Shown here: piece after piece, positions 36,676 to 54,959 of the stretch
Position numbering within the stretch: the first letter of the stretch is position 1
How the letters are laid out: every line of letters starts with the position of its first letter
From: a virus
Lineage: Duplodnaviria > Caudoviricetes
Reading direction: 5' to 3' (one strand)
Length of the DNA: 64,000 nucleotides
Virus record (IMG/VR): IMGVR_UViG_3300029288_000081
Span: 107,467-171,466 of that record
Notes under the pieces: generated by a model
What the model was told of the DNA's origin: nothing
The model's input: the letters and a program-made list of their open reading frames with translations, nothing else
The model's database searches: none
Position numbers and translations under genes: made by a program

Positions 36676-36986
36676 GCAGGTACTACGACGGACCGGGACT
36701 CGGTGTTTCTGCGCTGGGGCAGGCCATCGACTCCTCACCGCTGACGATCTCGGTCCGCCCGACGGGCGCACTGATCGGCGCATGGTGGAGCCTCTCGACC
36801 GTGAGCGGCCTCCTCAGCGCCTACCACGGCTACCGCCGCAACGACGGCAACCTTGCGTGGGCACTCGCATGGTTCCTCGCGGGCAGCGCGCTGCCCGTCA
36901 TTGTGCCGGTCATCGCCTTCACGCAGGGCTACGCCAAGCCCGAAAGCATCTCGGCGAACAGGCGCCGCCGCAGGAGCCGTCGATGA
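36672..36986 (+). CDS. Small membrane protein with Arg tail
   Basis: Two hydrophobic segments, AYHGYRRN, and the C-terminus ISANRRRRRSRR. Confidence 0.75.
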   Translation: MSRYYDGPGLGVSALGQAIDSSPLTISVRPTGALIGAWWSLSTVSGLLSAYHGYRRNDGNLAWALAWFLAGSALPVIVPVIAFTQGYAKPESISANRRRRRSRR

Positions 36987-37732
36987 GCTACTTCAACGGA
37001 CACAGCCGCACCGGGCTCATGGGACTCGGAGCCGTCGCTGACGAACAGGAGCCCATCCGCCTGGGCGCCCGAGCGAAGGAAGACCCGATCCTGTCGGCCG
37101 CATCGTTGATCGCGTCCTCGGTCCTCGTGCGCATGGCCGGCGTGCCCAAGCATCGGCGCCTTGCCGAGATGATCATCATCCTCAATGCAGGACGCCCTGG
37201 GTCTGGGGACGCAGCGGGTGTCGACTACCGCCGTCGCGCCGCCGCCGCGCCGGACAAGAAGGACCAGGCGATGTTCGACGCGGTTCGCGCGGCGGTCGCC
37301 AACGAGCTGGTTCGCCGGACGCTGAAGAGGGGTCCCGCTTCTCTCTCTGGCCTTGGGCAGACACTCGCAGAGGCGCGTGGCCAGACCAGCCGTGGCGTCA
37401 ACGATGCGCAGGCAGTCTTCTGCACCTACATCGCTGGAACATCCGCGATGGTCGGCGGGTACGTCGATCAGCTCGCAAGCGGAGGCACGCAGAACACGGG
37501 CAACATCACCCGTGCGTCGGGTGCGGCTGCGGCCACCGGCGGATGCGGTGCTGGCCAGCTGGTCATCCAGGGCGAGAACGCTCTGGCACAGGCTCGACTC
37601 GCGCAGAGCGGACAGGCCGCCGCGGCGCTCGCGGCTGCTGCGCGGGAAGCCACGTTCATGAAGTTCGCTCTGGTGGGCGGTGGCCTGCTGGGTGCGATGA
37701 TCCTCGGCTACGTCGTCGTCAAGAAGATGTGA
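36983..37732 (+). CDS. Virion membrane protein, paralog A
   Basis: MSYF...LMGLG...LSGLGQ with a C-terminal TM. Confidence 0.75.
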   Translation: MSYFNGHSRTGLMGLGAVADEQEPIRLGARAKEDPILSAASLIASSVLVRMAGVPKHRRLAEMIIILNAGRPGSGDAAGVDYRRRAAAAPDKKDQAMFDAVRAAVANELVRRTLKRGPASLSGLGQTLAEARGQTSRGVNDAQAVFCTYIAGTSAMVGGYVDQLASGGTQNTGNITRASGAAAATGGCGAGQLVIQGENALAQARLAQSGQAAAALAAAAREATFMKFALVGGGLLGAMILGYVVVKKM

Positions 37733-38439
37733 TGAGCTACGCATCGACAGGATCGGGTCAGGCCGCAGTGCGCGTTGGCAGCGCTGCACAGAGCGATCTT
37801 GTGCTCGCGAACGCGTCGCTCATCGCGTCGAAGATCATGCTTGGGGCAGCAAAGAAGCCGGCACGCATCCGAGCTGCGTTCATCGCGAACAAGCTCGACG
37901 CGATGCGCCCGGGGCTCGCTCGCGAGGTGGCCACCTCGCGTCGCCGCCTCGTCGCACAAGGCAAGGCTCCCGACCAGGCCGCGTTCGACGCGATGCGGCT
38001 CGCTATCGCGAACATGAACATGGCAGCGGGGATCGACTCCCTTCGCGTGTCGGCGGCCAAGGAGCACGGCGCAGAGGCCTTCAGCGGTCTCGGGCAGATG
38101 GCACCGAACGACCGCGCGACAGCGTGTACGGTGTCGGCCGGCGCCCAGGTGGTCGGCGGGATCGCAAGCATCGTCCCGGTCTACGGGACGATCATCGGTG
38201 GCATCATCAGTATCGGGTCCTCGATCGCTGGCGGAGCACTCGACTGCACGCGTGAACAGCGAGAAGCTGCGGCTGCGGCTGCGCAGGCTCAGGGGAATCT
38301 CGTTGCAGCGCAACAGGCAGCGGCAGCGCAGGCGGCGGCGCAGGCGGAAGCAACGAGCGGATCGCGAAGGCGCGTGTACATCATCGGAGGCGGCGCACTC
38401 GTCGTCGCTCTCGGAATCGGGTATCTCCTGCTGAGCTGA
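37732..38439 (+). CDS. Virion membrane protein, paralog B
   Basis: MSYA...ASLIAS...DQAAFDAMR...FSGLGQ with a C-terminal TM. Confidence 0.75.
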   Translation: MSYASTGSGQAAVRVGSAAQSDLVLANASLIASKIMLGAAKKPARIRAAFIANKLDAMRPGLAREVATSRRRLVAQGKAPDQAAFDAMRLAIANMNMAAGIDSLRVSAAKEHGAEAFSGLGQMAPNDRATACTVSAGAQVVGGIASIVPVYGTIIGGIISIGSSIAGGALDCTREQREAAAAAAQAQGNLVAAQQAAAAQAAAQAEATSGSRRRVYIIGGGALVVALGIGYLLLS

Positions 38440-54078: not shown

Positions 54079-54140
54079 GCCTGGCGCAAGCCTGAGCCCT
54101 GACCATCAACGTCACCCACCACTTCAGGAGATCGAACATC

Positions 54141-54959
54141 ATGGCACGACGCCGACACAGCCGACGATCAGCGGTGCGCTCCACCAGGCGCCGCCGTCGG
54201 GTTCACCGCAATGCCCGCAAGGTGCTGCGGAACCTCTTCGGCGCCGACGTCATGCGCGACGTGGTCGCACCGGTCCTCGGTGGCACCGTCGGCTTCGTGG
54301 CGGCGCGCTACGCGGGCAACATGCTCTCGGCGCGCGTCTCCCAGCTGGCGGACCCGCGCTACGGCAAGCTCGCCGCCGCGGCCGTCCTCATCCCCGCGAC
54401 GTTCGCCGCAGCGCGGATGTACCCGGGCATGGTGCGTCAGAACGCAGGAGCAGCGGTGCTCGGCATCGGCCTCGCCGCAGCCGAGTCCTTCCTTCGGAAC
54501 ACGCCGCTCCTGGGTGGCGCTCCGCAGGCAGCGATCCTCGCGTCGGGCCCGGCAGCTTCTGGTCCGACGGCGGCTGGCGCGTACTACGCCACCGCGGGGC
54601 TCGGTCGCGGCTACGACGTCTCTCACGCAGGCGCGCCCTACCAGGGCATGCTCGGCATGGGGACGATGTACGCGGCAGCGGGCATCGGTGAGTACGTCGA
54701 GCAGCCGATGAGCGGCCTCGGCGACTCGGGTGACGGGATCTCCGGCATCAACGACCTCGGCGCCCCCGGCGACCAGGGCGCGGTCGACAGCTCCATGAAC
54801 CGCATGGAGTCGATCTCGACGATCAACCCCACCGACCTCGCCCTCCGCGCTCCGAACCGTCCGCAGGTCAAGCGCGTCACCACCCCCTTCGCCTCGGGCG
54901 ACGAGGGCTACGCGGGCGGCACCTTCGCCCGCCACCTCTTCTCCGGAATGGTGGGCTGA
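54141..54959 (+). CDS. Paralog of the C-terminal membrane part of the core polyprotein
   Basis: Shares GADxMRDVVxPVxGGTVGFVAAR, GTMYAAAGxGEYVE, QPMSGLG and GxAGGxFARHLF. AGGAG RBS. Confidence 0.85.
   Translation: MARRRHSRRSAVRSTRRRRRVHRNARKVLRNLFGADVMRDVVAPVLGGTVGFVAARYAGNMLSARVSQLADPRYGKLAAAAVLIPATFAAARMYPGMVRQNAGAAVLGIGLAAAESFLRNTPLLGGAPQAAILASGPAASGPTAAGAYYATAGLGRGYDVSHAGAPYQGMLGMGTMYAAAGIGEYVEQPMSGLGDSGDGISGINDLGAPGDQGAVDSSMNRMESISTINPTDLALRAPNRPQVKRVTTPFASGDEGYAGGTFARHLFSGMVG

Follow-up and report, generated by a model that had tools for sequence, protein, structure and literature searches.

Does a three-residue pattern that recurs near the ends of otherwise unrelated late proteins of a large virus act as a signal, and if so, what reads it? 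This question is raised by the right arm of a 64-kb window (64,000 nucleotides), which corresponds to the last 64 kb, positions 107,467 to 171,466, of the 171,466-bp virus record IMGVR_UViG_3300029288_000081 (G+C 66%). Coordinates with the prefix w are positions in this window, and "genome" refers to positions in the whole record. Genes in the window point leftward to ~w28500 and rightward from ~w31755, and many of the rightward genes encode small proteins that combine Gly-[Leu/Met/Phe]-Gly (G-h-G) with an N-terminal Met-Ser-Tyr (MSY), a transmembrane (TM) helix, and an Asn/Arg-rich tail. We find that G-h-G is a genuine selected linear motif common to unrelated late proteins. On about twenty otherwise unrelated small membrane proteins, this tag probably serves as a shared signal that directs incorporation into the virion or cleavage, and w36025, a putative transglutaminase-fold enzyme encoded at the head of the same module, is the best candidate for its reader. 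The explanation that we tentatively favor, at a probability of roughly 0.4, is that the motif belongs to a targeting leader and provides the site at which this enzyme cuts.

The motif is strongly enriched in the right arm. The 23 proteins encoded within w36672–54959 contain 27 instances of G[LMF]G against 7.5 ± 2.8 expected, and none of 1000 per-protein shuffles reached 27, which excludes Gly content alone as the source of the G[LM]G frequency; the other 188 predicted proteins of the genome contain 47 against 39.4 expected, which is not significant. By middle residue, the observed/expected ratio for GxG is 3.5 with Leu and 4.6 with Met. Position is equally non-random: 10 of 24 proteins here have a G-h-G that begins at or before residue 36 (shuffle mean 2.0, maximum 7 in 500 shuffles), as do 22 of 53 proteins from four distant relatives (shuffle mean 4.25, maximum 12) whose genes were called independently by the source pipelines. 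Across all 212 predicted proteins of the genome, 20 begin with M[ST]Y, and 12 of these 20 carry the motif within 40 residues, compared to 10 of the remaining 192 (p-value = 4e-9); an MSY N-terminus ahead of many copies had been noted in a first-pass annotation of this region. An N-terminal motif similarly co-occurs with a basic C-terminal tail (11/22 vs. 13/190, p-value = 1e-6), and most motif copies have a Tyr nearby, as in MSY, YY...MLG, or G-h-G-x-Y. The MSY triplet is encoded by ATGAGCTAC seven times and by ATGTCGTAC twice, and this use of two different Ser codons indicates selection on the protein rather than on the DNA.

Alignments with relatives delineate the constant part of this pattern. 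Two near-complete IMG/VR relatives, G1 of 152.9 kb and G2 of 161.5 kb with terminal repeats, encode orthologs at 30–65% identity in which [LMF]-G is kept while flanking residues have diverged, as illustrated by the series ALGMGQ/AMGMGQ/VAGMGQ, SHLGQ/HPLGQ/SHLGQ, MSYAGLGQ/MSYLGQ, and MRGMGT/RSMGT, and by ALSQ in this genome (G0) vs. ALGQ in G2. Since these flank-diverged orthologs keep the motif, the constant core is [L/M/F]-G, usually accompanied by a preceding Gly (two residues before) and/or a following Gln, instead of the hydrophobic-x-G-h-G form initially described. That description had been built on 18 pentapeptides, 17 of which are in frame in plus-strand genes, while RTGLG (w44303) lies in the wrong frame inside w44286 and is not a real peptide. 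Within the pooled N-terminal set, information is concentrated in G-h-G; the following residue varies (Gln at 12 of 32 sites, then Ala, Asp, Glu, and Thr), and the spacer from MSY to G-h-G is highly variable, from 0 to ~25 residues, often basic, and in G1 often Arg-rich (e.g., MSYRRSPVRRRRFGLG). Relatives in which the w36025 homolog is just 53–59% identical still carry MSY...G-h-G, with short Lys tails in place of the Arg tails. The motif also exists in a C-terminal form, TSGMGSYYRT here and SGIGNYVRGW or RGIGNYVREW in the 298-kb relative L013, and in a set of 320–390-aa orthologs (G1 and contigs L013–L016), judged from their termini only, that have the motif but no C-terminal anchor. Carriers are further found outside of the right arm and on both strands (genome 38257, 54153, and 79322, as well as w62309 and w62586), and given this scatter, the MSY, motif, and tail elements behave as portable modules.

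The candidate reader is encoded at w36025–36675 (plus strand, likely start w36079), and heads the module, directly upstream of the carriers, in every relative examined. At least 167 homologs were found in public metagenome clusters, and the 120 listed are all ≥58% identical. Across 20 sequences of 60–82% identity (alignment A1), C119, H157, and D174 are invariant, and the order and spacing of this triad match the transglutaminase/papain core. Two homologs, each 62–63% identical to w36025, exceed the cut-off of 23 bits for Pfam Transglut_core (PF01841), namely P0112 (25.3 bits, profile positions 4–108 of 108) and P0117 (28.1 bits, positions 7–108 of 108), and 3 of the 20 aligned members match this family. 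In the ESM Atlas, w36025 scores 0.97 to Transglut_core clusters, and one neighboring cluster has Peptidase_C93 on 26% of its members. Sequence and profile matches in the PDB were to designed Kelch-repeat proteins, and were rejected as spurious. When the 171-kb genome was searched at E ≤ 1, neither Peptidase_C5 (PF00770) nor C48/Ulp1 (PF02902) gave a match, although a very remote homolog could escape detection by sequence. Circumstantial evidence suggests that w36025 may be a protease that reads G-h-G, and that cleavage may occur at the motif. In L013, a Fic/MazE-antitoxin pair (9154–9857) is inserted directly upstream of the w36025 homolog. The 800-aa product of w32962–35364, which keeps its position upstream of w36025 in all relatives and has no family match, includes a long, probably coiled-coil, Glu/Arg/Gln-rich center, and may be a scaffold or tape-measure protein.

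The carriers, presumably virion proteins, are encoded on the plus strand within the window (site positions refer to the first base of each pentapeptide). Just upstream of w36025, a small protein (w35644–36000) has an N-terminal PLRGIGGY, i.e., the G-h-G-x-Y form, which reads PLRGLGSY, VKGLGNY, or VKGIGNY in relatives. Downstream, a 104-aa protein (w36672–36986) combines an N-terminal GPGLG and ALGQ with hydrophobic segments at residues 32–48 and 65–81 and an ANRRRRRSRR tail. The paralogs w36983–37732 (MSY...LMGLG at w37016, internal LSGLGQ at w37343) and w37732–38439 (MSY start, FSGLGQ at w38080) both have a C-terminal anchor without an Arg tag, and the carrier at genome 38257 likewise has an anchor but no Arg tag. 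In the 483-aa protein of w38488–39939, ALGMGQ (w39754) lies ~20 aa ahead of the TM and basic tail, and this site is kept in the G1/G2 alignment and in the corresponding ~450–500-aa proteins of more distant relatives. A small gene at w40002 (or w39936)–40232, masked in a plain list of open reading frames (ORFs) by the overlapping ORF w39216–40232, encodes ...MYPLYGLGQ (LYGLG at w40050) followed by a TM and a Lys-rich tail, and is kept in L013–L016, L018, L020, and L022.

The next genes follow the same layout with variable completeness. The protein of w40235–40579 has a VSY start, an HLGQ core without the first Gly, a TM, and an ANRKRSRRSR tail, and that of w40595–41410 has MSYYEEGMMGLGD (MMGLG at w40616), a TM, and a basic region. 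MSYAGLGQ opens both w41407–42618 (YAGLG at w41413), where it precedes a 360-aa body, a TM, and a KNRRRVRRNRRHR tail, and w44286–45026 (YAGLG at w44292; TM and basic tail), whose G2 ortholog starts with MSYLGQ. Between these two, w42615–42923 encodes an N-terminal ALGQ core, a TM, and a PNRRRRHRRSR tail, and w42920–43492 encodes MSY...PGMG and DGMG, a TM, and an Asn/Arg tail, the latter two features being also found in w45023–45637 (MSY...LHGMG at w45068, MNGLGD at w45095) and w45640–46020 (MSYMRGMGT, MRGMG at w45649). The protein of w46024–46860 starts with MSYALSQ and lacks G-h-G where G2 has ALGQ; its TM is followed by the Arg tag and then by a globular domain. The layout is reversed in w46857–48119, which ends in the C-terminal TSGMGSYYRT (w48087). 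Toward the end of the window, two further small genes within w62309–62813 encode MSYHRTGLGT without a C-terminal anchor (w62309) and MSYK...TAMGQ...TM...KANRRPRRR (w62586). Outside of the window, a 251-aa protein on the minus strand (genome 79322–78567) starts with MSYAMMGLGQ and continues with a globular middle domain, a TM, and a KRNRRRGR end, i.e., the full grammar of MSY, motif, TM, and basic tail, far from the late module.

The first-pass annotation had proposed that G-h-G and the Asn/Arg tag sit on opposite faces of the membrane. The underlying order of motif, TM, and Asn/Arg tail was recovered for about ten single-TM proteins, and the reversal described for w46857 is correct (basic residues 309–321, TM 323–341, GMG at residue 413). 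However, a single-pass protein with its motif at the N-terminus and its tail at the C-terminus necessarily shows this order, which therefore says little about sidedness. For w51304 and w54141, put forward as reversed proteins with three TMs, the basic N-terminal part and C-terminal motifs are present, but the hydrophobic segments are weak and contain charges: w54141 has three weak segments with 13–16 uncharged residues bounded by conserved charges (alignment A3), and w51304 has only two clear hydrophobicity peaks. A possible second hydrophobic segment (residues 392–408) lies ahead of the C-terminal GMG in w46857, and the two hydrophobic segments of w36672, one gene upstream of the region covered by the annotation, and of its orthologs would put motif and Arg tail on the same side, making this protein a probable counter-example. 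These TM calls are based on crude hydropathy scans, with an ambiguous TM count for w36672, w46857, w51304, and w54141. Since the informative multi-segment cases are ambiguous and carriers without an Arg tag or without an anchor exist, the opposite-faces rule is not established, and is best seen as a by-product of motif and tail placement in single-pass proteins that is ambiguous or fails where it would be informative.

Multiple motif copies are found in the two genes directly upstream of a candidate capsid gene, w55127, in G0, G1, and G2. The first of these (w51304–54078, plus strand) encodes a 924-aa protein with ~660 aa containing 19 Arg-rich clusters, built of repeat modules such as NGRRRSRR...RRRV(S/T)RN, then weak hydrophobic segments, and then GEYVDQPMSG[FL]G three times in tandem (MSGFG at w53644 and w53677, MSGLG at w53710), a repeat that is kept in the G1 and G2 orthologs. 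This protein looks like a protamine-like polyprotein fused to a membrane and motif domain. The second (w54141–54959, plus strand) is a paralog of the w51304 C-terminal part, with a basic N-terminus, three weak hydrophobic segments, AGLG, MLGMG (w54648), and MSGLG (w54708). We found 138 homologs of this family, of which the 120 listed carry 1 to 11 G-h-G each, and in an alignment of 30 sequences (A3), Y148 and G172 (the Gly of MLG) are invariant in the linker. Family members also end in G-[YF]-A-G-G-x-F-A-R-H-L-F-[SA]-G-M, with several positions invariant in A3, and this conserved end could be the actual capsid-contact element.

The candidate capsid protein itself (w55127–55963, plus strand) was modeled with AlphaFold2 (AF2) from a 35-row multiple sequence alignment as a jelly-roll β-sandwich, with a predicted local distance difference test score (pLDDT) of 74. 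Its best structural match is the SPV1 capsid protein (Z 7.4, root-mean-square deviation 3.3 over 133 residues), followed by P23-77 VP17, HHIV-2, and HCIV-1 (Z 5.5–5.7), all below the guide value of Z 8, and the list also includes tailed-phage jelly-roll decoration proteins; the Foldseek E-value was 0.05. A tblastn search of w55127 against phage records yielded no match, and searches of the ESM Atlas and of its folds with w56138 and w55127 returned unnamed viral clusters only. The many anchored proteins suggest that the particle may contain an internal membrane.

How, then, is the motif best explained? In the reading we favor, virion-bound proteins would carry a modular signal consisting of an N-terminal MSY, a spacer of 0 to ~25 residues, and G-[L/M/F]-G, in many cases with Gln as the next residue, with the motif placed alternatively at the C-terminus as G-h-G-x-Y or in tandem arrays. 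A single conserved viral factor, most likely w36025 acting as a papain-like protease, would read this signal with Leu, Met, or Phe at P2 and Gly at P1, and cleavage would remove a short leader during assembly, in a manner similar to the T4 capsid-targeting sequence and prohead-protease site or to adenovirus protease sites. Papain-fold proteases usually prefer a bulky hydrophobic residue at P2, the concentration of information in h-G with a variable next residue fits an enzyme reading the non-prime side, and the variable distance between MSY and G-h-G fits a leader laid out as signal, spacer, and site. Several points weigh against this reading. Cleavage at the motif is something we infer from sequence; w36025 itself falls below the Pfam Transglut_core threshold, its single-sequence AF2 model was unusable (pLDDT 37), and the transglutaminase fold also covers cross-linking enzymes and inactive scaffolds. 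Some leaders would be 5–7 residues long (MFGLG, MSYAGLG), C-terminal sites would release 5–7 residues, and the tandem arrays of 1 to 11 copies resemble multivalent binding motifs at least as much. The latter are what a close rival, possible if somewhat unlikely, would predict: Tyr and G-h-G in disordered termini or linkers would plug, uncleaved, into a repeated partner such as the capsid inner face or a scaffold, thereby tethering membrane and other virion proteins, with tandem copies providing multivalent binding. N-terminal, C-terminal, and tandem internal placement is typical of linear motifs, and both the Tyr near most copies and the position of the multi-copy w51304/w54141 family next to w55127 are consistent with docking. 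Yet the partner is hypothetical, the very variable spacing between MSY and G-h-G does not define a single fixed epitope, and, unless a cleft such as an active site is involved, the motif is very poor in information for specific binding. Docking and cleavage are compatible, and both can coexist. The first-pass annotation had offered these same two options, and a common reader, whether protease or docking site, is indeed the natural explanation; the opposite-faces rule is not supported as stated.

The same enzyme could instead be a cross-linker that uses the Gln after G-h-G as donor to attach carriers to Lys of the capsid or of neighboring proteins, and thus hardens the particle. The probable membership of w36025 in the transglutaminase-like superfamily, its intact Cys-His-Asp triad, the Gln following the motif in 12 of the 32 N-terminal instances and in most of about 14 G1 copies read by eye, and the flexible termini typical of transglutaminase substrates would all be in line with this role, but Gln is replaced by Ala, Asp, Glu, Gly, or Thr at orthologous sites (LMGLGA vs. 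LMGLGQ, MMGLGD vs. FSGLGG) and is absent from the C-terminal forms and tandem repeats, so that we consider it very improbable. A role in membrane biogenesis or topology, which the opposite-faces proposal implies and in which the motif would help to bring tail-anchored proteins to the future viral membrane or to insert them there, seems slightly less remote, as most carriers are single-pass and C-terminally anchored without signal peptides, and the motif is associated with basic C-terminal tails. It is nevertheless improbable given the carriers without C-terminal anchor (w62309 and the 320–390-aa set), the distant relatives that retain the motif although their Arg tails dwindle, and w36672, where both probably lie on the same side. 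We most strongly disfavor the absence of any dedicated function, i.e., a relic of a duplicated ancestral small gene or a Gly-rich by-product: w36983/w37732 and w51304/w54141 are clear paralog pairs, but most carriers have no detectable similarity beyond their termini, and composition is excluded by the per-protein shuffles. Persistence of the motif with diverged flanks, in genes scattered over both strands, points to selection on the motif itself.

Compared to known systems, the favored combination of leader and cleavage site most closely recalls adenovirus and T4. In adenovirus, pVIc is released at an IVGL↓G site (arrow, cleavage; PMC4246237). As in the adenain sites of pVI, pVII, pVIII, pIIIa, and pre-mu, the motif has two Gly with a hydrophobic residue upstream, many virion or core precursors bear a site, and Arg-rich DNA-condensing peptides would be present in the same particle. 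The match to the (M/I/L)xGx↓G consensus noted in the first-pass annotation is nonetheless partial: G-x-G is present, but Met, Leu, or Ile occupies P4 (position −2 before the first Gly) at half or fewer of the sites (14 of 28 here, five of them from one repeat family, and 11 of 32 in the pooled N-terminal set, with Arg, Tyr, Phe, Lys, and His common), and the residue between the two Gly is fixed as Leu, Met, or Phe where adenain takes any. Core-only sites such as HLGQ, PLGQ, and ALGQ also lack the Gly at P2 in the adenain frame. The host is prokaryotic and no C5/C48 protease was detected; given the different enzyme fold, the resemblance would be convergent at most.

T4 internal proteins carry a capsid-targeting sequence as an N-terminal leader (PMC3012670). 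Similarly, a short conserved N-terminal leader ending at a common short site is found on diverse, otherwise unrelated, presumed virion proteins, both in this genome and in its relatives, and one viral enzyme is encoded within the structural module, as is the gp21 prohead protease. In contrast to T4, the motif is G-[LMF]-G instead of L/I-x-E, the candidate enzyme is of the transglutaminase/papain type with Cys-His-Asp instead of a serine-protease fold, carriers are mostly membrane-anchored, and terminase, portal, and HK97-type genes were not detected. Among cellular enzymes, LapG (Peptidase_C93) and Bacillus Tgl are small Cys-His-Asp transglutaminase-like enzymes that act on surface or coat proteins at short motifs, either processing or cross-linking them. 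They differ from w36025 in sequence family, in target motif (LapG cuts at di-alanine), and in setting, which here is viral with many presumed substrates. The tripartite arrangement, in which a short motif is combined with a hydrophobic helix and an Arg/Lys tail, is also reminiscent of LPXTG, PEP-CTERM, and GlyGly-CTERM signals, whose motif directly borders the helix, but a sortase- or exosortase-type sorting signal was rejected because the motif, mostly located in the first 30 residues, is about 15 to 360 residues away from the helix and does not adjoin helix and tail. Likewise, a Tat signal peptide was set aside since the basic leaders of G1 (e.g., MSYRRSPVRRRRFGLG) precede polar sequence and not an h-region, and pilin-type and double-glycine bacteriocin leaders were ruled out by their layout.

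The wider genome indicates a virus of prokaryotes. AGGAG is found 6–9 bases 5′ of right-arm genes and start/stop codons overlap by 4 bases, and these Shine-Dalgarno sites and overlaps indicate that the host is prokaryotic. Searches with Pfam and PHROGs recognized helicases, a primase, RtcB, glycosyltransferases, and a MoxR/VWA pair, and an M23 peptidase and a tyrosine integrase are also encoded. The same searches recognized no terminase, portal, HK97-type capsid, or A32-type ATPase in the genome, none of the right-arm structural genes, and gave no match for w55088, w56138, w57506, w58266, w32962, and most large ORFs. PF04665 (A32-type, FtsK/HerA-like packaging ATPase) had no match in the genome, where the classical Walker A motif is confined to UvrD-like and MoxR-like proteins. 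LAGLIDADG/intein signatures interrupt a DUF2201 metallopeptidase/VWA protein and an 873-aa glycosyltransferase (w15841–18333, minus strand; genome 45926–48547 and 48994–51213), and the best-matching RtcB stretch of the 739-aa RtcB begins at residue 423. Near-complete genomes of this group span 150–170 kb, and many related metagenome contigs, up to 298 kb, carry the w36025-type enzyme. A scan of genome contigs also identified short related contigs in metagenome-assembled genomes (MAGs) of seven phyla (L018–L024, labeled Acidobacteriota, Clostridia, Nannocystaceae, Lentisphaeraceae, Planctomycetota, Patescibacteria, and Saccharibacteria); these are probably mis-binned viral DNA, and no host is therefore inferred from them. 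We found no description in the literature of this lineage or of the MSY...G-h-G motif, and the lineage is apparently undescribed so far.

Taken in full, the picture that these elements could form is doubtful but far-reaching: a lineage of large prokaryotic viruses in which a jelly-roll particle surrounds a membrane with >20 anchored proteins, addressed by a two-part code of MSY...G-[LMF]-G(Q) and Asn/Arg-rich tails, and in which a transglutaminase-fold Cys enzyme clips or cross-links the carriers. Such a system, with its protamine-like core peptides, would have converged in a prokaryotic setting on maturation of the adenovirus type. Were the motif indeed a targeting and processing signal, a simple sequence rule would predict the virion proteome of widespread uncultured large viruses, and a new enzyme fold would join the few viral maturation proteases. 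The tag being short and portable, it is directly testable and could perhaps be used for loading cargo into particles. Together with the Arg-rich tails, such a signal would amount to an independent, adenovirus-like combination of genome condensation and particle maturation in a prokaryotic virus.

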